A stretch of 64,000 nt of DNA from Candidatus Woesebacteria bacterium (lineage in GTDB: Bacteria; Patescibacteriota; Microgenomatia; UBA8517). A program made the position numbers and the translations under genes. This document shows positions 27,584 through 45,742 of this stretch, piece after piece. Location: the NCBI GenBank assembly GCA_016700095.1, contig CP065002.1:240463-304462 (forward strand). The letters are read 5' to 3'. Under the pieces are notes generated by a model, which had not been told where the DNA came from, made no database searches, and worked only from the letters and a program-made list of their open reading frames with translations. Position 1 is the first letter of the stretch; the number at the start of each line of letters is the position of its first letter.

Positions 27584-27626
<43 letters not shown>

Positions 27627-28149: not shown

Positions 28150-28290
28150 ATGTGGTCTACAAAGCATGTATGCTTTAAGAAACAGCCAACAATTAACAAA
28201 CAACTAACAACGAATTTAAGTTGGTAGTTGAGAGTTGAGGGTTGGGTGTTGTCTACAAAATGTATACATATTTTGTAGACTGCGTTCCGT
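28150..28290 (+). other. second 16S expansion/intervening hairpin (gtctacaaa...tttgtagac) with aacaattaacaaacaac motif
   Basis: replaces the short helix between ccgtaaacgatg and gctaacgcgttaagc. Confidence 0.5.
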
Positions 28291-28338
28291 AAGCTAACGC
28301 GTTAAGCGAGCCGCCTGGGGAGTACGAGCGCAAGCTTA

Positions 28339-28370
<32 letters not shown>

Positions 28371-29375
28371 CCAGTGGAGCATGTGGTTTAATTCGAGACG
28401 AACCGAAGAACCTTACCTGGACTTGACATCCCGACGACCGTTCTAGAGATAGAATTTTCACTATGTGACGTCGGTGACAGGTGCTGCATGGCTATCGTCA
28501 GCTCGTGCCGTAGGGTGTTCCCTTCAGTGGGGTAACGAGCGCAACCCTTGCCGTATGTTAAATTGTTCATACGGGACTGGTCGCCTTTGGCGACAGGAAG
28601 CGGGGACGATGTTAAGTCAGCATGGCCCTTATGTCCAGGGCTACACACATGCTACAATGGAGCCGACAGAGGGTTGCCAAAGAGCAATCTGGAGCTAATC
28701 CCAAAAACGGCTTCTCAGTTGGGATTGAGGGCTGCAATTCGCCCTCATGAACGCGGAATTGGTAGTAATCGCAAATCAGCTAAGTTGCGGTGAATACGTT
28801 CTCGGGTCTTGTACACACCGCCCGTCAAGTCAGAGGAGTTGGGGGCACCCGAACACCGAGAGTCTCGGTGGAAGGTGAAATCAGCAACTAGGATTAAGTC
28901 GTAACAAGGTATCCGTTCTGGAAGGAGCGGATGGATCACCTCCTTTCATGGAGTTGAGGTACGAAAAGTACAATAACACCCAAGTTTTCAGTCAGCGGTT
29001 TCTTTGTCTTTTTTAAGTTTACTTAAGGAAGAATAAAAACCGAGTCCGTATGTAACAACGATAAAGTACCGCTTCCAGTCATTTTTTGAGTGAGAGTATT
29101 AATCTTCAATTTTAAAAGTTTACTTCTAACAGTTTCGGATTTATTTTCGTAAAATCTTTAACCGTAGACTGATACAACCGACTTTAGTTGGTAGAGGATG
29201 TCATTTCGAACCTTATTCCCTTTACTGTAAATTCGTGAGTTAATTACATCAAGCATAGCTTAAATGCTTGACGATATATAAACCAAATGATTAAATGAGT
29301 TATGCCAAAGAGTAGAATAGTCCGCAGTGTATCTTGTGTAAGACTTCCCAACTAGATTTTATTTAATTTATTAAT

Positions 29376-29687
29376 ATGGCACTTACTAAATCAGATTTTA
29401 AAGAAATGAGAAAGGTTGTATCTGAAAGTGTGACCGATATAGTTGTCGATGCATCTCAATTAATTCTTAGTGGTATCCAAAAGATGTTTGATGTGCGGGA
29501 TATTAGATTTGATGTTCATGATAAAAAACTGGATAAATTAACTAAAGATATCCAAAGTATTAAACTAGATACGAGGTTTATAAAAGATGATATTGCAGGT
29601 ATAAATGGTGAGCTTGGACTCAAAGCATCTAAAAAAGATATAATCAAACTTACCCAAAAGGTTGAAAATTATCATCCCTCGAATTAG
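29376..29687 (+). CDS. hypothetical coiled-coil protein, paralog of 37066..37314
   Basis: shared M-LTK-D...R-V termini and ...HPS C-terminus. Confidence 0.4.
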   Translation: MALTKSDFKEMRKVVSESVTDIVVDASQLILSGIQKMFDVRDIRFDVHDKKLDKLTKDIQSIKLDTRFIKDDIAGINGELGLKASKKDIIKLTQKVENYHPSN

Positions 29688-29951
29688 ATTGATATTTATA
29701 ATTCATCCCACTAAAAAACCCGCCGTGAAGCGGGTTAAACTTTTCTCAAATACAAAAGCGTATGGAGGGTAGGTGTGCAAAGAGGTGCTTTGCTGTGTCT
29801 ATTCTTCGTAAGAAGAAAAGGGTACAGCCAGGCATTCTTTGTAAAAGTGCTTTAGAGGTTGTGTAGAAAACCTAACCCTCCACACGTTTTTGTACTTAGC
29901 TATTATAGCATCACTTAAAAATAATTCACGGGTATTTTTCAGGATAACAGA

Positions 29952-31226
29952 TTGATATCACCTCGTACAAAATACATTTTTGAAATCTCAATAGTATGGG
30001 GTAAAATACCTACCATGTGTCGAGAAAGAAACTTGGTGGAAAAAAAGACTAGAGTAAACGGAATTGATGTGCATGGATCAGAAAATCCACTAAATCAGCC
30101 GGAAATAAATGCTTTAGTGGAACAAGTAAATCAGAATCCTGTTTTACACCCAAACATCCTAAAAGCAACACATTTTGCATGGCAAGGTGATACTGATACT
30201 GTACCGCAAATCGTTGGGTATGAGCTAGGGTGGAGAGGGCATTTGCAATTTGTTGATGCACATTACCAGGCACTGTCCCAAATTGTCGGTAAAAGTATAA
30301 AAGGAGTCGATGTTGAATTGACCCGTATGGTCGTTAACGAGAATGAATCGGTAGGTCCCGCATCATACCACTTGGGATATTTAGTTTCGGGTTTCAAAGA
30401 TTCCGCTGGTACTGATGGAAATTGGCACCCATCACCATATAACCCTACAGTGTCAGCCTATTACAATCACGCGCATAAAATTGACTATGGTGAAGTGCAT
30501 GAAATGGGTCACAGAGTGCTGCACCTGCCAGATACTTATTCCATTGATACTGTACTTTCTCCTACCGGAAATGACATACTGGCGAATGTACCACAGCCAT
30601 GGCTTACATATATGACTCACAAAAGAAACGATAGAGGTCCTGATTTGATGAATGGAGGTTTGTATATGGGGGAAGCAAGTTATCGCCTTGATCCATACGC
30701 CACATGGTTACTTCAAAGGCGTTTTGTACAGGGTTGGCAGCATGATTTGGCACGAGCAATCCCAGAAGGCGCGTGGAACTTTCCTCATGAGGTACCAAAT
30801 GAAACTACACTCGAAGCAAAGGGTTGGGAAGGAGCCAGCTTGACAATTTTTAGAACCGATGGCACAGAAATGGAAAAACATCTTGCGGAAGAACCGGTAT
30901 TTTCCGGGCAATTTAATCAAGATGGCAAAATTACCATAGGAGATCCGTTTGAGGGTGTCGACAATAGTGACGGTTTTGTGCCGAATTATCGATCATTGCT
31001 ACTTCTTAAAGCCACAAGACCGGATGGAACCATTGGTGTTCGTTATATGGATATTGGTGATTTTAATATGGCTACGGGTTTAAAAGGGGAGCACTCAAGC
31101 CGTGCGGAAATGCGATTGATTGGTGGCTTTGCGGATGTTTCAGATCCGAATGTCACACCGGAGAATTTCAATTGGACGATATTACGTAATCCGATAGATG
31201 TTTATATGCCAATAGTTGCAAAGTAA
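29952..31226 (+). CDS. hypothetical protein with HEMGH (HExxH) zinc-peptidase-like motif
   Basis: motif only; GC content higher than surrounding genome. Confidence 0.45.
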   Translation: MISPRTKYIFEISIVWGKIPTMCRERNLVEKKTRVNGIDVHGSENPLNQPEINALVEQVNQNPVLHPNILKATHFAWQGDTDTVPQIVGYELGWRGHLQFVDAHYQALSQIVGKSIKGVDVELTRMVVNENESVGPASYHLGYLVSGFKDSAGTDGNWHPSPYNPTVSAYYNHAHKIDYGEVHEMGHRVLHLPDTYSIDTVLSPTGNDILANVPQPWLTYMTHKRNDRGPDLMNGGLYMGEASYRLDPYATWLLQRRFVQGWQHDLARAIPEGAWNFPHEVPNETTLEAKGWEGASLTIFRTDGTEMEKHLAEEPVFSGQFNQDGKITIGDPFEGVDNSDGFVPNYRSLLLLKATRPDGTIGVRYMDIGDFNMATGLKGEHSSRAEMRLIGGFADVSDPNVTPENFNWTILRNPIDVYMPIVAK

Positions 31227-31273
31227 GATTTCTATCAATTCGAGAGGTCCACGGACTATTGGGCACTTACTAA

Positions 31274-33436
31274 TTATTTGGAATTAATTACAAGTGTGTT
31301 TTGAGGATTAAGTAAACCTTTATTGTCATATGCAGTCCTATGCATTCCCACCGACTCCCAGATGTTTTTACCGCGAACTCGACGATATGTGTTATTCATT
31401 ACCTTAACCTTAGCGGGGTCTAGGAAATCTTCTGTTTTGTAAATCTTACCCGTTACCAAGTTTACTTCTTGCACAAGTGCGTCGAATGGTTTGTTTATCG
31501 CTTCTGCGCTGTCCCGTAAACCAAATTCGTTGTGTTTAGTACCATTTACCTCAAATACGTAGGTGTTTCCTCCAACGCCATTTTCTTTTTTATACTTTTG
31601 TTGCACCAGCTCCATAAACGCGCGTAAATTTCCAGACGTAATTTCGCGCATCAGCTTTTCAGGAGAATTGATGCCAACCTCAGCCAAGTAACCAGAGTTG
31701 TAAAGTTCAGCCAAAACATGTTGGTATTGCATTCGTTGAAACCTTTCTTCTGTGATTAATTCGGCACTTGGATTATTCAAACCGGATTTTAAAGCGATGT
31801 TGTCAAATGCAACTATTCCACCGTCCTTCACCACCATAATTGTTGTGCCATCACTTCCTTTTCGTAAGTTCCTCATGTACTCGTCTGAACCATCTCCTTT
31901 TATAACATCAGGCGTTTTATTCTGACCTCCAGTTATCCTTGAGGCATTTTCTAGAAATGCCCCATGTTGTGCATCTGATTGATAAAACATGCCGGCACGC
32001 GTAGTGCTGCTTAAAACTGAGAAACGTCCATTGATATTTGCCCCGTATCTTGAATTATCTGAATTATTTATAATGAATGCTGCCTCAAGCTCGTATCCTG
32101 GATCGATTTCCTTGTTTGCAAAACCATACGTATCTACTGTGGGTTCTTTGACTAAAACAGTTTGGATAACCAACTTTTTTGTTCTGTTTGAACTATTGAG
32201 ATCGTGCGTAGTGGCAAAGAAAAGGTGGTTGCCAGTTTCAGGTACATCAACACCGAGATCATCTAGATCAATATTATTTGTATCAACCGCACCAACCACC
32301 CCACGCATTGCACTTTCAAGATCTCTTGTTTCATAGACTTTTGCATCAACAAATCTGACTTTTTCTTCTACGACTATGCCATTTTGTATTTGCTGAACCT
32401 TAAACTCCATGTCATTAAGCGTGTTCATATTACCGCCTCTTTGGACAAAAACTTCCTCAAAGAAATAAAAGGGTAAAATATCAGTAGTTACTAAACCTGC
32501 GATACTTGTTTGCTGGCCTGAATGGGCAAGTAGAAAATTCGTATTCTTTCTATCGGTTGTTACAACACCTGTTAAATCGGGATGTTGATTATAACTATCA
32601 AATCTTTCGATTTGTTCGTGATCATCAGTTGCTATTCCACCAGATTGTAAGTTAAGACGCATGGAAACTTCACCAGTTTCTGAATTTATGGATGAATAGC
32701 GGGGATCTAAGTGTTTTTCTACCCACCCGGGTGTTTTATAAGTAGCTTCCAATATTTCTTTGGGGAAAACGATAGTAACATCTTCTTCCAGAGATATTTG
32801 TCCAATTCTTTTGTTGGGATTGGTTAACTTCTCCACATACTCTGGAGTGCTAGTTGGCTCTGGTTCATTTGCTGGAGTGCTAGTTGGCTCTGGTTCATTT
32901 GCTGGAGTGCTAGTTGGCTCTGGCTCATCAGTGGAGGTTGCAGTAGGTGTTGATTTATCGATTCCAGCTCCCGAACCGCTTCCTGAAACATGTGAATCGC
33001 GGTTATCGGGTCTATTTATATTTTGCTTTTGTGTATCCCCAAAGATTGCCCTTTTACCTTTTTTTATTTTATCATCAGCTGAGTTTACAATAATACTAGC
33101 TCCCACAAGTCCGGCAATTTTCAAAACATCACGCCTTGTTAACGCAAGTGGTCTATCGGATTGATAATTTTCATTTCGCTTACCTTTTTCGTCTTCTGAA
33201 ATATCAACTGTTACCTCACGTTTGGTGTAGGGAGATTTGTTTATTACAAGTTTATTATTTGGTTCTTCAGGTTTTTCTGCCATAGGAATTAACACCTCGC
33301 GTTGGGTGTATGGTGATAAATTAAGAAAACGTGTTTCATGTTCGCTCATATTAGTATAGCGTAAATAATTTATATGGAGATTTTGAAAGAAAGCAGATTG
33401 CCTAATTACTAACTGCAACCTGCTAACTACCATCAC
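31274..33436 (-). CDS. large secreted hypothetical protein with twin-arginine-like signal (TRRDVLKIAGLVGA) and PTSTPANEPE tandem repeats
   Basis: 36-bp perfect DNA repeats at about 32820-32930; N-terminal duplicated SPYT-REV motif. Confidence 0.55.
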   Translation of the reverse strand: MMVVSRLQLVIRQSAFFQNLHINYLRYTNMSEHETRFLNLSPYTQREVLIPMAEKPEEPNNKLVINKSPYTKREVTVDISEDEKGKRNENYQSDRPLALTRRDVLKIAGLVGASIIVNSADDKIKKGKRAIFGDTQKQNINRPDNRDSHVSGSGSGAGIDKSTPTATSTDEPEPTSTPANEPEPTSTPANEPEPTSTPEYVEKLTNPNKRIGQISLEEDVTIVFPKEILEATYKTPGWVEKHLDPRYSSINSETGEVSMRLNLQSGGIATDDHEQIERFDSYNQHPDLTGVVTTDRKNTNFLLAHSGQQTSIAGLVTTDILPFYFFEEVFVQRGGNMNTLNDMEFKVQQIQNGIVVEEKVRFVDAKVYETRDLESAMRGVVGAVDTNNIDLDDLGVDVPETGNHLFFATTHDLNSSNRTKKLVIQTVLVKEPTVDTYGFANKEIDPGYELEAAFIINNSDNSRYGANINGRFSVLSSTTRAGMFYQSDAQHGAFLENASRITGGQNKTPDVIKGDGSDEYMRNLRKGSDGTTIMVVKDGGIVAFDNIALKSGLNNPSAELITEERFQRMQYQHVLAELYNSGYLAEVGINSPEKLMREITSGNLRAFMELVQQKYKKENGVGGNTYVFEVNGTKHNEFGLRDSAEAINKPFDALVQEVNLVTGKIYKTEDFLDPAKVKVMNNTYRRVRGKNIWESVGMHRTAYDNKGLLNPQNTLVINSK

Positions 33437-33708
33437 CTATCTGCTAATTTCTAGTAATTATTCCCATCCAAGAAGTGAGTGTAAGAGCAGTACTCGTCTT
33501 TTTTGGCAACTAATTGCCAAAAGAGCCAAGTCCTGTTTGCCGGGCCCCACCCGGCACGCTTTAGAGGTTATTTTCTTACACCCACATCTTGAGCGGGAAG
33601 TATCTTTACTTGTGCAGGGTTGGACCCTGCAGACCAATTTTCATTTCCTCAAATAATTCACTTAAGAGATCAAAGTTGGTTAGTTTCCTGGATATAGAGA
33701 AAGGAATA

Positions 33709-33933
33709 CTAGAGGAGTTTTGCGAGTTCTTTGGTTGATATCCCAGCTTGTTTAAGAATCGCTCTTAATGTGCCTTGAGGAATCGGTTTCGCATGTACTG
33801 CTACTTGTGTCCATCTTCCGTCAGGATGTTTTAATCTTATGTGAGATCCTTTGCCGCCGACCTCCACAAAACCCAATTTAATTAATATTTTTATTAATCT
33901 CTTTGGTTTTATATTACGAGGTAGTTTGGGCAT
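33709..33933 (-). CDS. hicA: HicA-family mRNA interferase toxin
   Basis: 74 aa; KxxKRLIKILIKLGFVEV...GKGSHIRLKHP pattern of YcfA/HicA. Confidence 0.75.
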   Translation of the reverse strand: MPKLPRNIKPKRLIKILIKLGFVEVGGKGSHIRLKHPDGRWTQVAVHAKPIPQGTLRAILKQAGISTKELAKLL

Positions 33934-33959
33934 TTATTGACCAGATTATTAAGTTTTAC

Positions 33960-34235
33960 TTATGCGAAGGCGGCTTTGTATTTGGAAGGAATTTTCACCT
34001 TGGCAGAAGTAACTATTTGCTCTTCCACATTATCTATCGGTATTTCTTTTCCTTCTTTACCAAGTGTTTCAATTGCCAACTCTATTCCATCTTTTATGCT
34101 TTGCATAACTTCCTCAATACTATCTCCATAATCAGCTATACCCAAAGTGGGGCAATATGCATTGTAAACCTTATTGCCGTCAGGGTATTTTTCTGGTTCT
34201 ATGATAACTCTATAGTTAAGTACGCTCTTTTGCAT
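33960..34235 (-). CDS. hicB: HicB-family antitoxin (UPF0150-like)
   Basis: YRVIIEPE...GNKVYNAYCPTLG...GDSIEEVMQSIKDGIE pattern; adjacent to hicA. Confidence 0.6.
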   Translation of the reverse strand: MQKSVLNYRVIIEPEKYPDGNKVYNAYCPTLGIADYGDSIEEVMQSIKDGIELAIETLGKEGKEIPIDNVEEQIVTSAKVKIPSKYKAAFA

Positions 34236-35369
34236 ACTTAGGATTATATCATAGAGAATATATTAATTTTTTAACGTGCGATATCTTAAAAACAGCTCCC
34301 GTAATGGGATTAGAAATTAGGTAATTACCTAGTGCCTAGTTCCCATCTACCAACTACCATCTACTATCTACTAATTAGTTCCCATCTACTAACTACAAAC
34401 TACTATCTACTAATTTATAAACCAATTTTCAATTCTCAAACCATTTGCTTAAGAACTCAAAGTTGGTTTGCGCTGTCAATTTGTTGTGTCGTTCTCGAGT
34501 AAGTAGGGGGTCCGGCTTTCGCCGGTCTTCTTTTGCTAGCCGCGTGGCTAGCTACTCGGGAGCGACTGTCAATCGACAGCGCTTAAATAGTTAATCAAGT
34601 GTGTCCCACTTGCGTAATTGCTTAAAATTACGAAGTGAAAAATATCACTTATTAACTATCCCAAGGATAGGATCTTAAAAGATTCAAATAAGGTTACCCT
34701 TACTTAAAAAAATTAAAAATCTTTTCCCTTTCGAATCGGGTCTTAAGTTGTTCCGAAGAACAAGTGACTTAAGTTCCAATTCTTTTGGAGTTGAGATTAA
34801 AAAGTTTGGAGTTTAGGCGAACCTAAATCCTGATTTTCAATTCCCAATTCCGGGTGGTTTTCTAGTCGCCTAAGGCAACAGTCCTCAATAGTGAGAGGTT
34901 TTTCAAAAACCGGTTTTGTTGTTTTTTGTCCTAATGGACCCAGATTTGAACCTTAGTTCAAATTAACAACACTGGTTTCTTCTAGATTCTCTAAAGTGAG
35001 AAACAATTGCTTGTAGTAAGCAACTTTCGAAGAAGGGTAATTAAAAGATTGGTATTTTTTGTAATCGAGATTTCTCTCAACTACCAATACTTTTCTTTCA
35101 ACTACCGTTGATCCCTATCCTGAGACTGATTTATCTCAAGCTTTTAGCAGTGTTTTTCTCAATGCCGTCCGGCATAAGTTGAGAAAAAATAGGGTAGTGA
35201 ATGACAAATATCCGCGTTAGCACGATTAGCTAACCTCGCGTCCAACTAAGCTAGGCTTAGTTTACTGGTCTTTCCAGAAGGCAATAGCCTTAAGAATTAA
35301 CACCCAGAGGGAACGGACAACCTTACGGTCCAACTGTCTCACGACGTGAGACCGTAAGGATTTAAATAC

Positions 35370-36743
35370 CTAGTCTTCTCGGCCGCGCCATGCGCCAAAG
35401 GCCATCCCCAAGAGGATGGCTATGGGCGCGAGTGCGCACAACCATATAAGACTTGGCCCACTGCCGCCGGTCGAGGCACTTTTTAGGGTGCCAGGGGTGG
35501 AAACCAAAGGCGGCCGGCTGGGGGTGATGCTGACGGCGGGGGTGGGAGTGAGTTTGGTATCAGCGCATTGAGCGATGAAAACTACAGCGGGGTTACCCAC
35601 TTTTCCCGAGAATCGGTTGTTTTCGCTCTCAAAAAGAGGCGATAAAAACCAATTTTGAGGGAAGCTGTCACCTCCGCGGAACGCCTGCCCCTGACCAAGG
35701 GTTGACGTAACATTTGTTACAATCACACCCTCAGGGGGCAATTCCCATGTTCCCATGTATCCACTGCCGTCGGCCGTGTGCGGAAAGCCACCGAAATAGC
35801 TTCCAACGCCGATGGTTACGGTCATGGTTTCACCATGACCAGGCGTATATGACCCGTCAGGCCACTCACAGAAGTGATACCCTCTCAGGTACCCCTTAAT
35901 GATTCCCGGCGTGGGGCTGGGGGTGTTGGTGACCCACGGCGTTGCCGTTGTCGTCGGTGTTGGTGTAACCGTGCCAGGGGTGGGGGTGAAGGGCGATGTC
36001 GGTGTTGGCGTCACGGTCAATGTCGGTGTGAACGTTGGCGTCACGGTCAATGTCGGTGTGAACGTTGGCGTCACGGTCAATGTCGGTGTGAACGTTGGCG
36101 TCACGGTCAATGTCGGTGTGAACGTTGGCGTCACGGTCAATGTCGGTGTGAACGTTGGCGTCACGGTCAATGTCGGTGTGAACGTTGGCGTCACGGTCAA
36201 TGTCGGTGTGAACGTTGGCGTCACGGTCAATGTCGGTGTGAACGTTGGCGTCACGGTCAATGTCGGTGTGAACGTTGGTGTCCATGTGGGCGTGGGTTCG
36301 GGACAGTTTCCCTGAACTACTACTTGAACGCTTCCACCTGGGTTGGGAGATGTATCCACGTGATTAAATTCACAATGGACTTCTCCGCCCGGAGGTATTT
36401 GAAATCCAAAACTGTTTTGGTATGGGTCAACTGTTCCCAATAAACCCTCAAAACCGTTCGAGCAGGAGTAAGTTATTAACTCCCATTCGTCTGGTCCCGA
36501 CCATACGCTCTGTGTATTTACGTTTACCTCCATTGTTGATGTGTTGCTATCATTGACGATTGTGACATCGTCCGTGACTTGTTCACACCAATAACTGGGT
36601 GTTGTGTGCTCTGAGCACAGTATTGCACTTATCCAGTAGTAGTTTTGGGCTTGGATATTTGTGGCACTGCCACCTAACAACATTGTTGAAAACAATAGGA
36701 TCCCGAAGATCCATTTCGTGATTTTCGCTGTCTGTTTAGACAT
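35370..36743 (-). CDS. GC-rich secreted surface protein with 9-10 perfect TPTFTPTLTV repeats and C-terminal hydrophobic anchor plus RGRED tail
   Basis: signal peptide, 30-bp perfect DNA repeats, C-terminal TM. Confidence 0.6.
   Translation of the reverse strand: MSKQTAKITKWIFGILLFSTMLLGGSATNIQAQNYYWISAILCSEHTTPSYWCEQVTDDVTIVNDSNTSTMEVNVNTQSVWSGPDEWELITYSCSNGFEGLLGTVDPYQNSFGFQIPPGGEVHCEFNHVDTSPNPGGSVQVVVQGNCPEPTPTWTPTFTPTLTVTPTFTPTLTVTPTFTPTLTVTPTFTPTLTVTPTFTPTLTVTPTFTPTLTVTPTFTPTLTVTPTFTPTLTVTPTFTPTLTVTPTPTSPFTPTPGTVTPTPTTTATPWVTNTPSPTPGIIKGYLRGYHFCEWPDGSYTPGHGETMTVTIGVGSYFGGFPHTADGSGYMGTWELPPEGVIVTNVTSTLGQGQAFRGGDSFPQNWFLSPLFESENNRFSGKVGNPAVVFIAQCADTKLTPTPAVSITPSRPPLVSTPGTLKSASTGGSGPSLIWLCALAPIAILLGMAFGAWRGRED
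35995..36290. repeat. about 10 perfect tandem copies of a 30-bp unit (gtcaatgtcggtgtgaacgttggcgtcacg) inside the surface-protein gene
   Basis: direct reading. Confidence 0.9.
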
Positions 36744-37065
36744 GTTTAACCTCCGTTAAATGTTGCGAAATAAGAAAGAACTACTTCACTTACTTTTCCA
36801 AGCTCTTTACAAGCTAGGCGAGGGGAAGATCAAAACCCTCGGTGATTTCCGTTCACCCAGTCCCTTTAAGGACTCGAAGTAAAATTACTTTAGCTGGTGC
36901 ACTTATCATTCTCTTGATTAGTAAAGTATCAGACGCGTTTTTACGCTGACACATCAAGAGGCTTGGGCTGAGACCCAAACTTACAAACCAACTGTCCCTA
37001 TATTGAGGGAAATATGCAGTCAAGCGTTTGCTTGACGGTTAACTTTTCAAGTGTTTAAATGAACT

Positions 37066-37314
37066 ATGTCACTTACTAAAAAAGATTTAGATCTAATAAG
37101 ACAAGTTATTGACGATTCGATGAGAGATACGAATAATCCTCTCAAACTTGAACTTAAAGCCGATATACTTGATTTCAAACTTGAAATCTTGAAAGAAATC
37201 AAAGCACTTCGTGAAGAAGTGGCGGTGACAATTTCATATCGGGACATGATTGCTAAAAACGAGGAAGATATAAAGAAACTAATCAATATCCATCCTTCAT
37301 TTTCGCACACCTAA
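37066..37314 (+). CDS. hypothetical coiled-coil protein, paralog of 29376..29687
   Basis: see 29376. Confidence 0.4.
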   Translation: MSLTKKDLDLIRQVIDDSMRDTNNPLKLELKADILDFKLEILKEIKALREEVAVTISYRDMIAKNEEDIKKLINIHPSFSHT

Positions 37315-37570
37315 AATTTTGCATATTTCCCCCAATAAGGGTAAGTAGTAACTTTCTTAAGTTACACCCTTTTGCCTTAACCCTCGATTTATTAATCGGG
37401 GTTTGCCGTATGTCCATCCACAACTAATGCAATTTGGATAAATCCAATAAAGGATTTGTCCTCCTACGCAATGAGCTACGGAAGGACTGCACTCCGATTA
37501 TTATCGGAGTTTGCCATTCACTAAGTTTTTAAAGAGCTAGCGGTAACTTGTACCTTTCTCTATTAGTAAT

Positions 37571-37624
37571 CTGTAATTGGCAGCTCGCGTTGGTTAAATT
37601 TAACTTTGGCCAACTGCCACTTAC
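37571..37624 (+). repeat. exact 54-bp direct repeat, copy 1 (ctgtaattggcagctcgcgttggttaaatttaactttggccaactgccacttac)
   Basis: identical copy at 38151-38204. Confidence 0.9.
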
Positions 37625-37802
37625 TGATTACTAATGTCAGGAATTAGGCACTAGGTAGTTAGATAATTACCTAATTCCTAAACTGATCCAGTATCCTATA
37701 TTGCGTACCTGCACAAATGTCGTTTGAGCGTTAGTTGTCTGCCAGTTATGTGACCTTCTGACGCAACAAACAACAAACAACAAACAACAATCAACTGTCA
37801 AC

Positions 37803-37935
37803 TTGTAACAAGTAACCTGTAACAAATAGTAAATAACCTGTAACAAGTAACTAGTAACAAGTAACTAGTAACAAGTAACTAGTAACAAATAACTAGTAAC
37901 AAATAACCTGTAACAAATAACCTGTAACCATTAAC
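37803..37935. repeat. about 9 tandem 14-bp units (taacaagtaactag / taacaaataacctg) preceded by an aacaaac microsatellite
   Basis: direct reading. Confidence 0.85.
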
Positions 37936-38150
37936 CGATAACTGGTAACTTGTTACCATTAATTATTAGTTTTTCGAACCTTATGAGTTTCGGTGATACA
38001 CCCATCAAGACTGTTGTCATGCACGCTTCCTTGTCATTCCCGCGGAAGCGGGAATCCAGCCTAGATCCCATAGATCCCCGATCAGGTCGGGGATGACAAA
38101 ATATGAAACTTGTGTACCCGATACTTTTTTACTTTTGCACTTTTAGCACC

Positions 38151-38204
38151 CTGTAATTGGCAGCTCGCGTTGGTTAAATTTAACTTTGGCCAACTGCCAC
38201 TTAC
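38151..38204 (+). repeat. exact 54-bp direct repeat, copy 2
   Basis: identical to 37571-37624. Confidence 0.9.
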
Positions 38205-38974
38205 AGACGGCTAATATCCTAACAAGATATCGAATATCGAATATCGAATATCTAACACCTGCTATAGACATATGCTACTTGCTTTTCAATTACCCCAAAT
38301 GTCTTTTGGTTGCCAATTGCTCGACAAATAGGTGACAGACGGGCTCTATCGGGCTTTTATTGCCTTTGTTTGATTTGCATACCCAGCTTACGGCTAAGTA
38401 TCAAATTCAATTTCTTGGCTTCTTGGCAGACAGGTCAGTCGAACTCACAAGTCGTGTTTCAACCAATCTGCCTGCCCAAAAGCCAAGGCTGTAGTTAGTG
38501 ATATTTTTCGACCTTCAAACGCAAAAAACCACACCTTAGAGTGTGGTTAAACTATATGCAAACTATTAAAGCCAAACCCGAGTACCTACCCGCAGTTTAA
38601 GCAGTATTCTCCCTTTAGCTTTTTTTCCTTCTAATAAATAAAAAGTATTAAGGCTTAAAAAGCTTATAAAGGAGTAAAAAAATAGTTTGCACAAGATCTG
38701 CCGTTTGACAAGATCAATTAATTTCCTCTAAAGCTACCTAGATTTCTCTAAGTGTTGGCAGTCTATCAAAGAGAGTGATAATTGTCAAGAGGGGAAATAA
38801 AGTAGCAAGTAGCAAGTAGCAAGTAGGTGGTAGATGGGTAGGAATTGAGTAAATACTAATTCCTAAACTCTAATTTCCTAAAAACAACCCCGGGGGTTGG
38901 AATAGCCTCAATCTAACCCCCGGGGTTGGAATTTGAAAACTTGGAAACTAATTCATTGCCTCTGTGAGGTATGG

Positions 38975-41959
38975 CTATTTTCCAATTTTTGCAAGCTCGG
39001 CTTTGAGGATGGATAGCTTATCTGCGTCGTTTTTCATTTTTTCCTTAATTTTTTTGTTTTCTGCTTCCTGGTCAAACGCCGGTCTTACCGGTGGATACTG
39101 TGGCGGATATTGATTCGTTGGGTAGAAGGGTGCGTTGGGATACTGTGTTGGTGGATAATTTGTATTTGGATAGTTCTGCGGTTCCATCAACGGATTTTGT
39201 TCTTGAGGCGGGTAATACTGAGGATTAGGATTGTTTGTATTTTTCACGGCTTTATTTTCACTCCTAAACTGAGGCTGTTTTGGCCTGGCGTGGTGACCGG
39301 CTTTCGGATTCGAGTATGATTTTGCTTGAGGTTTGGGAAGGGTGGAATTTGGACTTTGGACAACATTTTGTCCAGAATCGTAGAGCTGTTGTTTTTGAGT
39401 GTTTGGATTTTTATTAAATGGTTTGTTATTTTCTTTTAGCCACGGAAACTGGGGAACATCACTTGCTGCCTGGGCGTTGGGGTTGGGATGTGATTTAGTG
39501 TGTTTCGGCCTTCCTTCTTTCACTTCAGGACTTTTTTCACTCAATATATCTTTTTCACCTTGCACCAAAGGAATGGCGTGGCTTGTTTGTTGGGGAACAG
39601 CAATAGGTGCCGGAATAATTCTATTTGCCAAATCATTAAATTGGCTTGGTTCGGGAGCGGTGTTATTTACTGCCTGACCCGGATTGAGTATTGGGAGTGT
39701 TTCACCCATAGTTGCATTTTGAATTGGTATTGATCCAAGTGGCATGCCGGAAGGGATGATTTCTTGTGAGTCGACATCATAAGTTTCGTTTTCTGAAACT
39801 TCTGCCAACGACGGTTCTTTTGCCGATCGCGACCATCTTTCGCGGCTGACTTTGATAACCTTTTCTCGATTGCTGTTTATACTTTCCGGAAGTGAAAGCG
39901 TGGTTGCCAAAAATGGACGGGTCGAGTGCGCATCGATCATGAGTTTTATCGCAATTTGATAATTTGCCAAATTAACCATATCGTTTTCGCTAAATACCTC
40001 GGCAAATTCTTTATTAAATACCCTCGCGTCATCAGCTCCTACGGAAAAAGAAATCATCGTACCCGCATTTCCCAAAATTGCCTTTTGAACAGTATCGGGA
40101 ATTTGAGCCATATACTGATTTGCAAGAAGTAGGGCTAAGCCGTATTTGCGCGCTTCAGACAAAATTTTCACAAAGCTGTCTGTTGCGAAATTCTGAAACT
40201 CGTCAACATACAGGTAAAAAGGAACTCGATCTTCTTTGGGTGTGTCGACTCGGTGCATAGCCGCGAGTTGGAATTTCGTAATTAGCATTGCACCAAGAAG
40301 CGAAGCGTTGTCTTCACCAAGTCTACCTTGCGACAAATTCACCAAGAGTATTTTTTTCTGATTCATAATGTCATCAATCGAGATTGAACTTTTGGGTGTG
40401 CCGATTATTCGCCGTATCATTGGTGAAGTCACGAACTGTCCAACTTTGTTTTGGATTGGTGCTATAGCTTCTTTCTGTAATTTCTCAGGCATTGCATCAA
40501 ATTCGTCTTGCCAGAAATGAACCAAGGCTTCGTCTTTAAGTTTAGATACGACACGGTTTCTGTACGACTGGTTAGCTAAAATTCTCAAAACATCAGCCAG
40601 TGTGGAATTGGGAATTTCTGTCAGCGTGAGGAAAGAGTTTCTTAAAATGTATTCCATCCGTGCGGACCAGACATTTGACCAGACTTTAGTAAAAATGCTC
40701 ATAAGGCCTGCTACAACAAGTTCGGCTTCTTCGCGGTTGGTTACCTCTAATGGATTAAGAATGATCGGGTATTCTTTATCTGCCGGATTAAAGTAAATAG
40801 TGTCGTTGATCCTGGAGCTTGGAATGTAGTTTAATAAGTCCTCGCATAAATCTCCGTGAGGATCGATAACGGCGATACCGCGATCTTTCTTCAAATCATC
40901 GACACCCATGTTTGCTATCATTGTCGATTTACCGGTTCCGGTTTTTCCTACCACCCAGACATGCCTGAGGCGATCTTTGTCTTTGATGCCAAAAACTGTG
41001 TCTTTGTTTTGATAACGTGTTTTTGCAAAGAAATTTATCCTTGATTTTTCGGCAGGGGACTTGTCGGTTGCAATCGGTAAGTTTTGCGGAGGTTCAGTGA
41101 GAACCGAATTTCCCCAAGCAATTGTCGGAGTTTTTATCAAAGAGCTGGGAAGATGCCAAAGCGTTGCGATTTCCTGAATATTTAATATATGTTTGTCAGC
41201 AACCCTTCTTTCTTTAAGATATTCGATTTCTTCGGCAAGTTTTCCCTTTTTGGGAATCTTGACTACGAAGGCGTTACCGTCGGCTCGGGTATAAATTTCA
41301 AAAGTATTAATCAGATCTCCAAGTGTTTCTTCACTTGGTGCAAGAATTCTCAGAGAAGTTTTGAAGCCGGGATAAGATATTTTTTCTTTGATTATTGAAG
41401 CATCAGGTCTGGGTTTATATGTACCGTCCTCGTTTTTGGTGCCAAACTCAGCGTATTTCTGACCGTTTGCTTGCCAATTGCTGTTGACGGTTTCAAGAGC
41501 GATCTGAAACATTATAAAATCATCGGCAGGAGCTTTCGACAAAACACTCAAAATTGACGACATCGGATCGACATCTTTGAACGACGGATATACTGTTAGT
41601 GGGTAATAATCACCTTGTTTAAGTTTGAAATATGCCACTACATAATTTGTAAGGTCGACATGAGAGATGGGATCGTTAACCTTATCAATGGTTGTAAGGG
41701 GATAGCTGGAGTGGATCTGAGTTTCGATAAAAGGAATAAGGTTGATGTCGCAAGTTAGCTGAAAATGAACTTGCCCGGCAAAGTGAATAATTTCAAGCGC
41801 AAGAGGTTGGGTATTTGTAGTCGATTTCAGAAAACCAAAAAGTGACCCCCCTGAACCCGGATTGATTTGGGTAAGTGCCGTCAAAAAAGTTTGCGCCGCC
41901 TCTGGAGTAACTTCAGTGTTACGGGGAACTTTGAGTAAAAGTGTGGTTAAGTTGGACAT
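38975..41959 (-). CDS. P-loop ATPase of the VirB4/VirD4/TraD/HerA (type IV secretion-like) superfamily with a roughly 300-aa Q/N/P/Y-rich disordered C-terminal tail
   Basis: Walker A VVGKTGTGKST, Walker B LYVDEFQNF, ARKYGLALLLANQYMAQI...AILGNAGTMISF motif typical of T4SS ATPases/coupling proteins; no N-terminal TM helices. Confidence 0.6.
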   Translation of the reverse strand: MSNLTTLLLKVPRNTEVTPEAAQTFLTALTQINPGSGGSLFGFLKSTTNTQPLALEIIHFAGQVHFQLTCDINLIPFIETQIHSSYPLTTIDKVNDPISHVDLTNYVVAYFKLKQGDYYPLTVYPSFKDVDPMSSILSVLSKAPADDFIMFQIALETVNSNWQANGQKYAEFGTKNEDGTYKPRPDASIIKEKISYPGFKTSLRILAPSEETLGDLINTFEIYTRADGNAFVVKIPKKGKLAEEIEYLKERRVADKHILNIQEIATLWHLPSSLIKTPTIAWGNSVLTEPPQNLPIATDKSPAEKSRINFFAKTRYQNKDTVFGIKDKDRLRHVWVVGKTGTGKSTMIANMGVDDLKKDRGIAVIDPHGDLCEDLLNYIPSSRINDTIYFNPADKEYPIILNPLEVTNREEAELVVAGLMSIFTKVWSNVWSARMEYILRNSFLTLTEIPNSTLADVLRILANQSYRNRVVSKLKDEALVHFWQDEFDAMPEKLQKEAIAPIQNKVGQFVTSPMIRRIIGTPKSSISIDDIMNQKKILLVNLSQGRLGEDNASLLGAMLITKFQLAAMHRVDTPKEDRVPFYLYVDEFQNFATDSFVKILSEARKYGLALLLANQYMAQIPDTVQKAILGNAGTMISFSVGADDARVFNKEFAEVFSENDMVNLANYQIAIKLMIDAHSTRPFLATTLSLPESINSNREKVIKVSRERWSRSAKEPSLAEVSENETYDVDSQEIIPSGMPLGSIPIQNATMGETLPILNPGQAVNNTAPEPSQFNDLANRIIPAPIAVPQQTSHAIPLVQGEKDILSEKSPEVKEGRPKHTKSHPNPNAQAASDVPQFPWLKENNKPFNKNPNTQKQQLYDSGQNVVQSPNSTLPKPQAKSYSNPKAGHHARPKQPQFRSENKAVKNTNNPNPQYYPPQEQNPLMEPQNYPNTNYPPTQYPNAPFYPTNQYPPQYPPVRPAFDQEAENKKIKEKMKNDADKLSILKAELAKIGK

Positions 41960-42129
41960 GGTATTTATAGTATAACAGGAGAAGAAAGGTGTGATAAATA
42001 TAGATAATAGAAAACGTTTTCAAATATTTTAGGTAAAGCTATACGGGCTATACAGGGTCCAGCCCTGGAAGGGCTGGACCCTGTAATATCCATTTGTGTT
42101 ATAATAGCCACGCAAAGGAGGTGATATTA

Positions 42130-42288
42130 ATGAGAGAATCTGGAGATCCACTAACACCATTACAGACACAAGACGAGTTTGAAAGTACACACAAACCGGA
42201 AGTTTCAGGCACTGCTTCTGATGAACCAGAAACAGAAAATACACAGACACCTGTACCTGCTAGTGACAACACAGCACAACAAAGCTAA
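42130..42288 (+). CDS. small highly acidic S/T/P/E-rich protein with extended SD (aaggaggtgata)
   Basis: ATG 8 nt after perfect anti-SD complement; divergent from the ATPase gene. Confidence 0.4.
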   Translation: MRESGDPLTPLQTQDEFESTHKPEVSGTASDEPETENTQTPVPASDNTAQQS

Positions 42289-42485
42289 ACCGTAGCTATT
42301 TACGAAATTTCGTATTTATAGGTGTTTAGGGTTGGATTGGGGATGCATTCATAAAATACTCGAGTAAAGACACTGAGGGGATTGTTATTGTGTATTAAGA
42401 AATTATTATTTATTAAAAGTAGCTTTAACTTTATGACTATGCACGAGGTAATTATTTATAGATTAAGATTAAGGAGGTGATATAT

Positions 42486-42698
42486 ATGAAAGATAGAATA
42501 CAAAGAGTAGTGGATATTGAAACAGGAAAGCTGCAGGCAAATTCAAGAAAACCTGGAGGAAAAAAAGATCGAAAAATTGCAATAAAGGCCGCGGAGCTGA
42601 TGTTAGAAAATCCTGATATGACTCCAGAAATAGCACTTAACAAACTTGATCCTGAAAGTGCAAGGCTTTTGGGTGAACTTAGGGAGAAGGAAATTTAA
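42486..42698 (+). CDS. small basic/acidic hypothetical protein with the same extended SD
   Basis: aaggaggtgatatat-ATG. Confidence 0.4.
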   Translation: MKDRIQRVVDIETGKLQANSRKPGGKKDRKIAIKAAELMLENPDMTPEIALNKLDPESARLLGELREKEI

Positions 42699-42955
42699 AA
42701 GGGTTTATATGACTAATAGAATTTTATTGATGGTTGTAGTTTGACCAATTATTTTTTGTCTACTCCTAAAGATTAAACTCCCTCGTTATTGGGAGCCGCG
42801 CATAGTAATTTGTATTTAGAAGTAGATTGCGATAGGGAAACTGACGATGAGAAAGTTGAGTTTCTTATTTCAGCTATAAATATAATCACAAATCTCAACT
42901 AATATTTACGCACTAAGTTTCTGAATCAGAAATCTTAACTCTAAATATATATTAG

Positions 42956-43029
42956 TGGGCGCGCATGGACTCGAACCATGGACCTCCAAATTATCAGTTT
43001 GGCGCTCTAACCAACTGAGCTACGCGCCC
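42956..43029 (-). tRNA. tRNA-Ile (anticodon GAT), inverted relative to the rRNA genes
   Basis: reverse complement gives gggcgcgtagctcagttggttagagcgccaaacTGATaatttgg...ggttcgagtccatgcgcgccca. Confidence 0.8.
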
Positions 43030-43432
43030 TCGTCAGAGCAAGTTCCGCTTTCCGCCAAGCAAACTTGGCTTATCGCTCCACTTGTCTTCCTCTTCACTTT
43101 TACAGTTGTAAAAGTGGAAAAATGTGTTGCTTCACTTTTTGCAAACCACATATCGTTTATTGCAAAGCGTTACGTAATTTCTCCTTATCAATTTTGTACA
43201 AAAAAATTGGGAAAGATATTATTCCGCTTACTACTATGTAAACGCTTTTTTTAATACAAAACCCAAAACCAGATTCAAATAAACGAAAATCAATTTTGAG
43301 TTTATCGATACATAATTTATCATATATATGGGATTTAAACAATTGTTTAGTGGCGAAGAAATATAAACTTCAAAAATATAAATTTCACGCGCATTGACGG
43401 GAAATAGTTGACCCGTTTGGTATAATTAATAT

Positions 43433-43663
43433 GTGGGTATAATTAAAAAACTGTTTGGCGGAGATGATGAGACTTATGTTGTGCATGGAACTCCAGACGG
43501 AACGATGACTGATGTTGAACCAAATGATATCATACTAAAGGGTAAGGAGATACGTGAATATCATGAAAGATCAGGGAAACACCCTGAGCATTGTGGTGCC
43601 GAAATTGCGGCGGATATTGTTAGTCGAAGACCACGTGTGTTTAATACAAAAGAAAGAAATTAA
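43433..43663 (+). CDS. hypothetical small protein
   Basis: ORF track. Confidence 0.3.
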   Translation: MGIIKKLFGGDDETYVVHGTPDGTMTDVEPNDIILKGKEIREYHERSGKHPEHCGAEIAADIVSRRPRVFNTKERN

Positions 43664-43906
43664 TTACCTTATCCTCGTTGACTTCAATTTAAATAAGCCT
43701 TATAATAGCTTCTAGCTTTTGAGTCGGAATAAACAGTTGGGATGAATAGTCCCGACTTTCGAACTAATAAGTTTGAATTCGTTCAATCATCAGCCAGCTT
43801 ACGCTAGCTAGATTCTTGAACTAATATAAATGATAAGCCTATTTGTAACAAATAAATTTAGAGCGCTTATTTTGCGCTTCTAGACAGGGCTTATATTTAG
43901 TTATTT

Positions 43907-43931
43907 ACCGGCTTTTAAGCCGGTTTTTTTG
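43907..43931 (+). terminator. rho-independent terminator-like hairpin (accggctt ttaa gccggt) followed by a T7 run
   Basis: direct reading. Confidence 0.5.
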
Positions 43932-44084
43932 TTTCTAGTATAAATACTAGATATAATTCGCACATTAAATTTTACTTGCCCTACATTCATCTAAAATTCG
44001 AAAAACGAATTTATAAGAGGAAGAACAATGGAGCGTTGAAAGCAAGCTTTCTGCCTGCTTAATTTAGTGGACTCGTTCCGACGC

Positions 44085-44308
44085 GGGCCGTTAGCTCAGT
44101 TGGATAAGCAAAGCTTGGCCACTTGATCTAACCACCTTACGGGTTGTTAGCTCAGTTGGATAAGCAAAGCTTGGCCACTTGATCTAACCACCTTACGGGT
44201 TGTTAGCTCAGTTGGATAAGCAAAGCTTGGCCACTTGATCTAACCACCTTACGGGCCGTTAGCTCAGTTGGATAAGCAAAGCTTGGCCACTTGATCTAAT
44301 CGCCTTAC
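44085..44308 (+). repeat. 4 x 56-bp tandem units, each starting with tRNA-Ala nt 1-19 (gggccgttagctcagttgg) followed by ataagcaaagcttggccacttgatctaaccaccttac
   Basis: unit starts 44085, 44141, 44197, 44253; tRNA starts 44309. Confidence 0.9.
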
Positions 44309-44385
44309 GGGCCGTTAGCTCAGTTGGCTAGAGCGCTACATTTGCAATGTAGAGGTCGTGGGTTCGAATCCCACACGGTCCACCA
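44309..44385 (+). tRNA. tRNA-Ala (anticodon TGC) with G3:U70 and encoded CCA
   Basis: acceptor gggccgt/acggtcc, anticodon loop tTTGCaa, T-loop ttcgaat, CCA present. Confidence 0.85.
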
Positions 44386-45034
44386 ATGAGTACATTGATG
44401 AACCATGTGGTTTTCGAGGAATGCAACCAAGTAGGGAAAGTGCATGGCGAATCCCACACGGTCCACTCATTAGGAATTGGGAATTAAGTAGTTAGTAGTT
44501 AGTAGATGGTAGATTGGTAATAGAAATTTGGATTTTTAACATTAGTATTTAGTTTTAAGTTTCAAGTACCAACAATTAAGAATTGCGGAATACTTGACAC
44601 TAAATACTTATTAGTAGGTAATAACAACGCAGAAAAATTTTGTTGTGAGTTGTGAGAACCGGTTAGACTTAACCAGTTTTACAGAACACACCAACAGATT
44701 TGTACTTTAACAACTAAGAGAATGAAGTCACTTTAAGTGTACTTCATGGAAAAGGCCGTGAACCATCATTTATTTGATGATTCACAACACAAAAGCAATT
44801 TTGCAAAGCATGATGCTTTGCATTGAGAAAAATCCCGTACTTGATACGGGATGAAACGCTAAGTTTAAGTTTACTTAACGCAGACAGTGGATGCCTTGGT
44901 CTAGATTACCGAAGAAGGACGTGCAAGACTGCGAAAAGCGTCGGTGAGTTGTCAAGAAACATTACAGCCGGCGATGTCCGAATGGGGAAACCCGCACTGC
45001 TTCACCGCAGTGAACTCGTGCTCCAAGGGGCACT

Positions 45035-45141
45035 CTAAACAGGTAACAATTAACTACCAACTAGAATTAGTAATTGACTTTTAACTATAAGTTAACAGTT
45101 GAAAACTCATTGGTGTGTTGATTGTTGTTTGTTTGGAGTGC
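45035..45141 (+). other. 23S intervening hairpin 1 (helix 9/10 region)
   Basis: extra sequence between ggggcactc and ggagtgcc relative to conserved 23S; aacaattaac...gttgattgttg arms. Confidence 0.5.
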
Positions 45142-45254
45142 CTATTAAGGCGCGTAGAGGGAACCGCCCGAACTGAAACATCTAAGTAGGGCGAGGAAGA
45201 GAAATCAACGAGATTGCCTAAGTAGCGGCGAGCGAAACGGCAAGAGCCCAAAGG

Positions 45255-45355
45255 TGTGCGTAGCACACAACAGTTAACAATTAACATTCAACTACCAACT
45301 TTAAATTAAAGTGTTGGCAATTGATTGTTGTAAGTTGAAAGTTGTGTGCTATGCG
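45255..45355 (+). other. 23S intervening hairpin 2
   Basis: cacaacagttaacaattaac ... gttgtaagttgaaagttgtgtg arms. Confidence 0.45.
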
Positions 45356-45652: not shown

Positions 45653-45742
45653 TGAACTATTAACTTCCAACACACAACAATTGACATTTGGTTAATTGTT
45701 GGGAGCTTGTATAGAAGCGTGTTGATTTGTTGATGGTTCCGC
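45653..45742 (+). other. 23S intervening hairpin 3 (helix 25 region, a classical IVS site)
   Basis: aacacacaacaattgac ... gcgtgttgatttgttgatgg arms. Confidence 0.5.

Follow-up and report, generated by a model that had tools for sequence, protein, structure and literature searches.

We analysed a stretch of 64,000 nucleotides (hereafter the window) from the genome of a Candidatus Woesebacteria bacterium (GenBank assembly GCA_016700095.1, contig CP065002.1, positions 240,463 to 304,462), in which the genes for 16S and 23S ribosomal RNA (rRNA) are separated by about 16 kb. We found that this gap is very probably the inherited layout of the rRNA locus in a clade of Candidatus Woesebacteria (class Microgenomatia) and not the product of a recent invasion. 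The locus is genuine and usual in its lineage: the operon was split long ago, and the 10 kb next to 16S and the neighbourhood of tRNA-Ile are lineage-specific additions. The original prediction, made from the letters alone, had proposed a mobile island or nested insertions in the operon spacer, and had named relatives with the same gene content in an ancestral arrangement as evidence against this. Synteny comparison found such relatives for the core of the interval.

The 16S gene is located at 26961-28946 (+; 3′ end by Rfam, true 5′ end at about 26961) and the 23S gene at 44863-48164 (+; 3,302 nt, full Rfam model, 2353 bits). Between 28946 and 44863 there are 15,916 nt, and this distance from the 16S 3′ end to the 23S 5′ end exceeds the 1.5-2 kb that marks unlinked rRNA genes. 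The tRNA-Ile(GAT) gene (42955-43029, −; ARAGORN and Rfam, 76 bits) is inverted relative to the rRNA genes, and the tRNA-Ala(TGC) gene (44309-44385; Rfam and ARAGORN) is on the + strand. The 5S gene follows at 48294-48409 (+; Rfam) and is bracketed by 48278-48302/48400-48424. Thus, the separation of about 16 kb and the tRNA-Ile on the opposite strand, both of which had been predicted, were confirmed with Rfam and ARAGORN. Downstream of 5S, genes for an S1-domain protein (48530-49675, +) and RadA (51507-52832, +), both assigned with Pfam, serve as synteny anchors. Within the gap, one gene encodes a VirD4/TrwB-like ATPase of the FtsK-HerA superfamily (994 aa, 38975-41959, −), identified by the Pfam domains DUF8128 and TrwB_AAD_bind.

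Conservation of the split locus among relatives

The loci of relatives were collected as the DNA around orthologues of the ATPase, from an exact look-up and then from a metagenome scan with an ATPase alignment. Their rRNA and tRNA genes were annotated with Rfam, ARAGORN and blastn. The assemblies came from JGI, ENA, NCBI and Logan and from unrelated samples, and the loci and contigs are numbered here with the letter L. Exact look-ups of the window proteins returned short Logan contigs of one sample only. In addition, a scan of the GTDB species genomes with the S1 protein for the rRNA loci of relatives gave only two distant, irrelevant loci.

Twelve distinct loci had an ATPase at least 60% identical to that of the window (10 at 60-69%, and L090 and L092 at 74%). 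Where the flank suffices, the order is shared: 16S, ATPase on the opposite strand, tRNA-Ile, tRNA-Ala, 23S, 5S, S1 and RadA. This order was seen in L006, L007, L008/9, L010-L016, L018-L020, L023, L040, L050 and L090. Most relatives with an ATPase 48-56% identical have it as well, among them four more distant loci at 48-55%. The S1 and RadA genes 3′ of 5S were found in L005-L009, L013, L015 and L018 as well. For L092 there is a flank of only 1.3-2.1 kb, with no rRNA or tRNA gene in it. Among the 57 loci with an ATPase less than 48% identical, none had an rRNA gene or tRNA-Ile nearby. Since the ATPase lies between 16S and tRNA-Ile in the relatives, the operon was not recently invaded.

Meanwhile, the distance between the ATPase stop codon and the 16S 3′ end varied. 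It is 94-285 nt in L016, L018, L020, L015, L023 and L050 (individual values of 94-95, 207, 219, 270 and 285 nt), and in these compact relatives the ATPase is the sole gene in the 16S-to-tRNA spacer. In L008, L019, L006, L007 and L013 it is 5.1-9.2 kb, and in the window it reaches 10.0 kb. A quick neighbour-joining tree of the ATPase placed compact loci (L016, L018, L020) on its deeper branch.

Two loci show other changes of the same block. In L019, 6.4 kb (3265-9650 of that locus) is inserted between tRNA-Ala and tRNA-Ile, and the spacer between the two tRNA genes can therefore expand too. In L055, RadA adjoins the ATPase directly, as if the tRNA-23S-5S-S1 block had been removed or relocated, and the rRNA genes are not adjacent.

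The conserved ATPase carries TrwB_AAD_bind, DUF87 and TraG-D_C domains with a Walker A motif, and DUF8128 at its N-terminus. The TrwB/VirD4 nucleotide-binding domain (PF10412) scored 47.7 bits against a cutoff of 20.5. The core is strongly conserved, and the Walker A sequence GKTGTGKST is unchanged across 18 orthologues. There are more than 3,300 homologues, many of them named Woesebacteria or Patescibacteria and about 65% identical over the first 710 residues. Residues ~716-994 (38975-39815) form a 280-aa low-complexity C-terminal tail rich in P, N and Q. This tail is absent from most orthologues (710-750 aa), and in the closest ones (975-1,229 aa) the tail differs in length and is only weakly similar.

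Furthermore, the ATPase fell below the NCBIfam cutoffs for conjugative VirD4/TraD proteins (the best, NF045973, gave 45.7 bits against 250), and TrwB from PDB matched it at E 2e-3 only. In the 16-kb interval and the flanking genes scanned, there was no match to a relaxase, VirB4 or any other family of a type IV secretion system (T4SS). Among 2.9 million viral contigs of IMG/VR, the ATPase had only four matches, all distant and partial. It also matches phrog_5156, a PHROGs family of unknown function, at E 2e-74. The protein had been described as a T4SS-type ATPase; its TrwB/VirD4 type was confirmed by Pfam, but it is a conserved resident of the locus and not cargo.

Composition and gene content of the interval

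The spacer genes have a GC content at third codon positions (GC3) of 0.22-0.39 against 0.26-0.40 in the flanking genes, with the exception of 35370-36743. That gene has a GC of 0.53 with peaks of 0.59 and a GC3 of 0.57, and it is one atypical gene of about twelve. The interval had been described as filled with foreign-composition DNA, which the GC and codon-usage profile contradicts: only 35370-36743 is atypical. For this gene, about 60 percent GC had been given.

The atypical gene (−) encodes an ORFan surface protein of 457 aa with a signal peptide, a (TPTFTPTLTV)x9 linker, and a C-terminal hydrophobic anchor followed by RGRED; its open reading frame (ORF) contains a 30-nt tandem repeat present 9.3 times. 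The Thr/Pro linker uses codons ending in G or C, whereas the linker of a native 720-aa protein in the same interval uses codons ending in A or T. This gene is the one credible recent acquisition, and its codon usage suggests a donor of higher GC. In the locus as a whole, the number of genes that look imported is one.

Between the 16S 3′ stem and the stop codon of the ATPase gene, the DNA is specific to the lineage; its length among the relatives runs from 95 nt to 10 kb, and in the window it is 10 kb. When the spacer proteins of the window were compared with the loci of relatives by tblastn, only the ATPase, S1 and RadA matched. The first gene of this region (29376-29687, +) encodes a small protein of 103 aa of the MxLTKxDLxxIRxV family, which is related to a profile of spacer proteins of relatives at E 7e-8. 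It was also called on the independent contig L093, and a terminator scan found a two-way terminator-like hairpin 3′ of it at 29717-29736. Its paralogue of 82 aa (37066-37314, +) shares 50% identity with a spacer protein of 85 aa in L019, which is encoded in the same relative orientation. Since the family recurs in the spacers of L007, L008, L013, L019 and L090, some content of the variable region is old within the sub-clade.

Next to the first of these genes is an ORFan of 424 aa (403 as annotated; 29952-31226, +; GC3 0.33) with an HExxH motif, HEMGH, at residue 183. Its sole match among 5.8 billion proteins was itself (NCBI IPM62_01470), and Pfam has no family for it. Both this protein and the ATPase are 100% identical to NCBI proteins from a contig of 1,274,238 bp of a Candidatus Woesebacteria bacterium. 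The 720-aa protein (691 as annotated; 31274-33436, −; GC3 0.31) belongs to a rare family and has an RRDVLK motif, a hydrophobic stretch and a TSTPANEPEP linker, and its ORF contains a 30-nt tandem repeat present 2.9 times. It matched 26 cluster representatives at E<=1e-3, over the C-terminal ~250 aa only, and in Pfam it had only a sub-threshold low-complexity match. The original prediction spoke of HExxH proteins with twin-arginine translocation (Tat) signals, and in doing so merged two proteins: the 424-aa protein has HEMGH but no RR motif, and the 720-aa protein has RRDVLK about 100 residues from its N-terminus but no HExxH. Spacer proteins of similar size in L008 and L090 were tried as counterparts of the 720-aa protein and rejected; they are homologous to each other (E 3e-26) and not to it. 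The relatives share another secreted protein of about 715 aa, with a Thr/Pro linker.

The hicA gene at 33709-33933 (−) was identified by the HicA_toxin family (PF07927, E 3e-20, 72.5 bits against a cutoff of 27), and adjacent to it is a hicB-like gene of 91 aa (33960-34235, −). HicA is thus confirmed by Pfam, while the HicB half of the predicted hicAB pair has a sub-threshold match only (PF15919 HicB_lk_antitox, 19.2 bits against 27). No counterpart of hicBA was found in the spacers of relatives. Toxin-antitoxin pairs as such recur in these spacers, with hicBA in the window and AbiEii/DUF6922 directly upstream of the ATPase of L092. The variable region is best described as a long-lived zone of fast turnover of surface-protein and addiction-module genes.

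Transcription units and proposed history

About 7.5 kb of the interval is on the − strand, including the ATPase, the 720-aa ORF, hicBA and the 457-aa ORF. With such intervening protein genes on the opposite strand, one promoter would not serve both rRNA genes. In L006, L018, L023 and L050, two-way terminators made of a hairpin between A- and T-runs stand directly after the 16S 3′ stem, facing the ATPase. In addition, a TG-n-TAAAAT-like element was found 10-27 nt upstream of tRNA-Ile in L007, L010, L013, L016 and L018. We infer that 16S probably forms its own transcription unit and that tRNA-(Ile)-Ala-23S-5S forms a second one, which would start in the intergenic region between the ATPase and the tRNA gene.

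Upstream of the 16S 5′ stem (region 26638-26745), a TGTTATAAT box is followed by a strong hairpin with a T-run at 26725-26745. The order of promoter, hairpin and stem was also seen upstream of 16S in L006, L011, L016, L018 and L023. This leader hairpin could be an attenuator or an antitermination element.

A history of the locus can be proposed as follows. In an ancestor of the clade, a chromosomal gene for a VirD4-like ATPase came between 16S and tRNA-Ile on the opposite strand, as the synteny shows. This wedge would have split the operon into one unit with promoter, leader, 16S and terminator, and another with promoter, tRNA-Ile, tRNA-Ala, 23S and 5S. Since 16S and the ATPase converge, their junction is free of promoters, and from then on it has probably been a permissive site where lineage-specific DNA gathers and turns over. 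Its content is surface or secreted proteins with Thr/Pro linkers, a family of small coiled-coil proteins, toxin-antitoxin pairs and repeat-rich non-coding DNA. Three further local changes belong to this lineage: the inversion of tRNA-Ile, the insertion of about 1 kb on each side of it, and an array of 56-nt units that copies the 5′ end of tRNA-Ala. The 16S and 23S rRNAs would each be excised from their own precursor through the flanking helices, as in other bacteria, and their equal amounts would be set by two promoters and not by co-transcription.

Other explanations of the gap were weighed against this inherited layout. A join of 16S and 23S from different loci across a repeat, which would make the gap an assembly artefact, has almost no probability. 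rRNA genes are classic break and mis-join points in metagenomes, and in the same sample the Logan contigs are interrupted within tRNA-Ile and within 23S. However, two Logan contigs of SRR11674018, assembled independently, cross the junctions: L093 matches 28798-32871 at 100% and runs from inside 16S into the spacer, and L001 matches 38175-43013 at 99.96% and runs from the ATPase to tRNA-Ile. Contigs of that sample also match 47779-52145. Furthermore, relatives from other samples, over a dozen of them and each with its own independent assembly, have the same order across both junctions, and the downstream 5S-S1-RadA synteny is shared too. Thus, with independent contigs and a shared order in other assemblies, a chimeric join is very unlikely. 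Hardly more probable is a mobile island (an integrative and conjugative element, a mobilisable element or a prophage) that recently integrated into a canonical 16S-tRNA-tRNA-23S spacer and brought the ATPase, hicAB and the secreted proteins with it. The VirD4/TraG-type ATPase and its phrog_5156 match would suit such an island, but every close relative has the gene at this place, with an identity of about 65-74%, which is the pattern of an orthologue. The hicA toxin and one gene with foreign GC3 would suit it as well, but GC3 is native in all other genes, and searches of the spacer ORFs with Pfam, NCBIfam, PHROGs and PADLOC gave no integrase, recombinase, transposase, VirB4 or relaxase. A blastn search of 29120-37100 gave no match among 50,697 phage records and 72,556 plasmid records, beside the few distant viral matches of the ATPase. 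As to attachment (att) sites, a second copy of the tRNA-Ala 3′ end, 83 nt downstream of the first, is att-like, but the two copies enclose only 57 nt. A 19/21-nt direct repeat at 29012 and 44864 was tried as the ends of an element of 15.85 kb and rejected: by our estimate it is about at chance level in a 22-kb comparison, its right copy is the 23S 5′ end itself, downstream of the 23S 5′ stem arm, and an element so bounded would hold the 23S 5′ stem. No convincing att repeats bracketing the region were found. An empty site was not seen either, for all close relatives have the ATPase there and only the part next to 16S varies. The locus is an unlinked rRNA arrangement, and every test for an integrative element was negative. 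Of the two origins named in the original prediction, nested insertions fit the variable 10 kb, but a recent mobile island does not agree with a syntenic ATPase and with the lack of a mobility gene or att site.

One more explanation extends the inherited layout, in that the split site would be maintained for a function, either as a cassette locus that swaps surface-protein genes or by coupling expression of the ATPase, through its place beside the rRNA promoters, to ribosome synthesis. We consider this unlikely. The variable region always lies between two very conserved sequences and contains secreted or anchored proteins with fast-evolving Thr/Pro linkers as well as ORFans; but no swap was seen at the strain level, where L005 and L006, and likewise L008 and L009, differ by indels in repeat number and a few substitutions. 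The linkage of ATPase and rRNA genes persists down to about 50% amino-acid identity, but small genomes that seldom rearrange can keep their synteny without selection, and L017 and L057 have lost the linkage. In the cassette form, to which we give a low probability as well, the rRNA gene and the ATPase/23S block would be homology arms, and DNA taken up by the cell would replace genes for surface proteins and toxin-antitoxin pairs. If this were true, the split rRNA operon would be a hotspot of cell-surface diversification in host-dependent bacteria. In a related form, an orphan ATPase may be kept in the rRNA locus with its expression tied to rRNA transcription.

Several points weigh against the inherited layout with two transcription units, or limit it. 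L017 and L057 (ATPase ~51-52% identical) have no rRNA genes nearby, and one Woesebacteria genome is entered as 'operonic' with a spacer of 1,660 bp in a published survey (Lui et al., PMC8172020). Thus, the arrangement marks a sub-clade and not all Woesebacteria. Both the polarity, with the compact state as the older one, and the count of tRNA-Ile inversions are tentative, as they come from a neighbour-joining ATPase tree without support values. The two-unit model is suggested by gene orientation and consensus motifs. In the window there is no clean terminator after the 16S 3′ stem until 29717-29736, and the count of sigma-70 promoter-like sites in the interval is not above that of shuffles (47 vs 39 +/- 6). 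In addition, the 457-aa protein without its repeats had no homologue in the search and was absent from the exact-match index.

Other features of the locus and comparison with known systems

The tRNA-Ile gene is inverted, that is, on the ATPase strand, in the window, L005/L006 and L011, and these loci are scattered on the quick ATPase tree. It is co-oriented with 23S in 11 other lineages, namely L007-L010, L012-L016, L018, L019 and the closest relative L090 (ATPase 74% identical). The flip is therefore young in the window lineage and probably recurrent.

In the window, about 1 kb has been added on each side of tRNA-Ile. On one side are two small ORFs of 52 aa (42130-42288, +) and 70 aa (42486-42698, +), each behind the perfect Shine-Dalgarno sequence AAGGAGGTGATAT, which is part of a repeat. 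Both were called as genes on the independent contig L001, and neither gave a family match. Between the two tRNA genes, ORF calling found a small ORF of 76 aa (43433-43663, +), and scans found a promoter-like site at 43678-43706 and a terminator-like hairpin at 43907-43924 beside it. A 56-nt tandem repeat present 4.4 times (44084-44327, +; TRF, 96% matches, score 446) leads up to tRNA-Ala. At the start of every unit are the first 19 nt of tRNA-Ala, and the final copy continues into the genuine gene. No such array was seen in 11 relatives. The array contains no recognisable promoter, and the sequence leading into its first unit is similar to the leader of the inverted tRNA-Ile. At the other end of tRNA-Ala, the 3′ 19 nt are copied at 44448-44473.

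The three gene-free gaps of more than 1 kb that had been predicted are present, as there is no ORF of at least 90 codons at 34263-35369, 36756-38974 and 43255-44862. An alternative genetic code was rejected as their cause, because TGA, TAG and TAA all terminate long ORFs; translation table 11 suits the window. The several repeat families reported for the interval are present too. The stretch 34263-35369 contains heptamer and 39-nt repeats at 34337-34415. The gene-poor stretch 36756-38974 contains, beside the second MxLTKxDL gene, heptamer arrays at 37764-37936 and two hairpins of 84 nt (37555-37638 and 38135-38218). These hairpins have an identical 42-nt core and fold z-scores of −4.2 to −7.5; their outer stems differ yet stay paired, and a heptamer array lies between them. 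No further copies were found in the window, in 93 fetched loci or in IMG/VR, and they had no Rfam match. A permissive Rfam search of the spacer gave nothing credible in the gene-free gaps. The AT-rich gap also has two GC-rich palindromes side by side at 38030-38100, TTCCCGCGGAAGCGGGAA and ATCCCCGATCAGGTCGGGGAT, which resemble small hairpins of the repetitive extragenic palindromic (REP) type. Tandem repeats of 7 or 14 nt were found at 34337-34415, 37764-37936, 38227-38252, 38800-38826 and 44486-44531, and also in the spacers of L007, L008, L013, L014, L019 and L090. Such 7-nt-periodic repeats are a habit of the lineage and not a property of the interval.

The 16S gene itself is interrupted near its 5′ end by an intervening sequence of ~430 nt (27025-27455). 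The Rfam match of 16S (27394-28946) misplaces its start, with the first ~70 model positions badly aligned, and this start is an artefact of the ORF-bearing intervening sequence. The true 5′ end, TTTGAGGGTTTGATCCTGGCCCAG, can be aligned with that of the 16S gene in L006. The ORF in the intervening sequence (119 aa, 27081-27440, +) was assigned to PF05635, the 23S_rRNA_IVP family, with 89.5 bits where the cutoff is 33.8 (E 2e-25), and L007 has a free-standing gene of this family inside its variable region between 16S and the ATPase. The 16S intervening sequence is unrelated to the 16S-23S gap. The 23S gene has three expansions of ~85-116 nt without an ORF (~45025-45150, ~45262-45352 and ~45643-45744), which are long hairpins of 7-nt-periodic AACnnnn/GTTnnnn repeats. 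Sequence like these heptamers was also seen in the stem of the 16S insertion (27018-27065), within 16S (28175-28252) and in the spacer gap (37757-37804).

The flanking stems claimed for both rRNA genes are present, as helices of 22 nt with 95% complementarity. The outer 16S helix pairs 26783-26804 (+), ~155 nt upstream of the true 5′ end, with 29098-29119, and the 23S helix pairs 44722-44743 (+) with 48246-48267. An inner 16S helix, read from the sequence, pairs CAAAAAATGACTGGAAA at 26883-26899 (+) with 29072-29089, and the 3′ arms of both 16S helices together take up 29072-29119 (+). The bracketing helices are conserved, and the ATGACTGG/CCAGTCAT box of the inner helix recurs in L006, L011 and L019 with compensatory variants. 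A comparison of whole 300-nt flanks with shuffles by RNAduplex was swamped by whole-length duplexes, and stems and terminators were read by eye instead. Bracketing helices are also found in canonical linked operons, an established example being the RNase III sites in the rrn transcripts of E. coli. Because linked operons carry them too, these helices are uninformative on linkage. Independent processing of the two rRNAs, which had been deduced from the stems, remains reasonable but does not follow from them; the opposite-strand genes and the terminators are better evidence.

For genome scanning, a large, gene-filled gap between 16S and 23S is the norm of the lineage in bacteria of the Candidate Phyla Radiation (CPR), and a 'T4SS ATPase' within it is not a sign of a mobile element. 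In addition, an intervening sequence with an ORF leads to a wrong 16S start in Rfam coordinates. The phenomenon of unlinked rRNA genes and the homologues of the orphan ATPase are already known. The modest new point is that one orphan VirD4-like ATPase is wedged between 16S and tRNA-Ile across a clade of Woesebacteria, and that the adjoining region turns over, from ~100 nt to 10 kb. Full-text literature searches gave no description of the ATPase as a conserved wedge, nor of the variable DNA 3′ of it. The wedge is a handy synteny marker for the clade, the variable region is a circumscribed site at which to follow how reduced genomes gain and lose genes, and the locus is a natural case for the balance of 16S and 23S from separate promoters.

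In comparison with islands that target tRNA genes, the region is similar in having variable DNA by tRNA and rRNA genes, a toxin-antitoxin pair, one foreign gene and a partial duplication of a tRNA 3′ end. It differs from them in that it has no integrase or bracketing att site, its ATPase is orthologous and syntenic, and its codon usage is mostly native. Likewise, rRNA intervening sequences with ORFs for 23S_rRNA_IVP (four-helix-bundle) proteins resemble the 430-nt insertion in 16S with its PF05635 ORF, whereas the expansions of the 23S gene have no ORF. Insertions within the rRNA genes of CPR bacteria have been noted (Brown et al. 2015, as cited in bioRxiv 10.1101/705046).

The ATPase shares with the VirD4/TrwB coupling proteins the domains of a type IV coupling protein (T4CP) and the Walker A motif. 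It differs from them by scores far below the curated ones, by DUF8128, by its 280-aa tail and by its fixed position in the rRNA locus. A survey of Patescibacteria in 2025 counted 5,713 VirD4-like homologues in 2,918 genomes, of which 148 were near virB4, and its authors did not rule out exaptation for other functions (PMC12102498). The ATPase of the window resembles these orphan T4CP homologues, as it also has no visible association with T4SS genes.

The closest likeness is to the unlinked rRNA genes of CPR bacteria and Patescibacteria, which are on the same strand, more than 2 kb apart, with opposite-strand protein genes between them, and specific to clades. The study of Lui et al. (PMC8172020) has a category of just this kind (type D) and gives unlinked 16S and 23S for 27 of 34 circularised CPR genomes, and Brewer et al. 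(2020, bioRxiv 10.1101/705046) list Patescibacteria among the clades with conserved unlinked rRNA genes. The distances tabulated by Lui et al. for circular genomes of Microgenomatia are 2,872, 8,467, 8,974 and 8,985 bp, and this 2.9-9 kb is the range of the compact and expanded relatives studied here. The window differs in that its 15.9 kb exceeds those Microgenomatia genomes and every relative sampled. Furthermore, in the passages and table rows of Lui et al. and Brewer et al. the intervening gene is unnamed, whereas here it is a VirD4-like ATPase.

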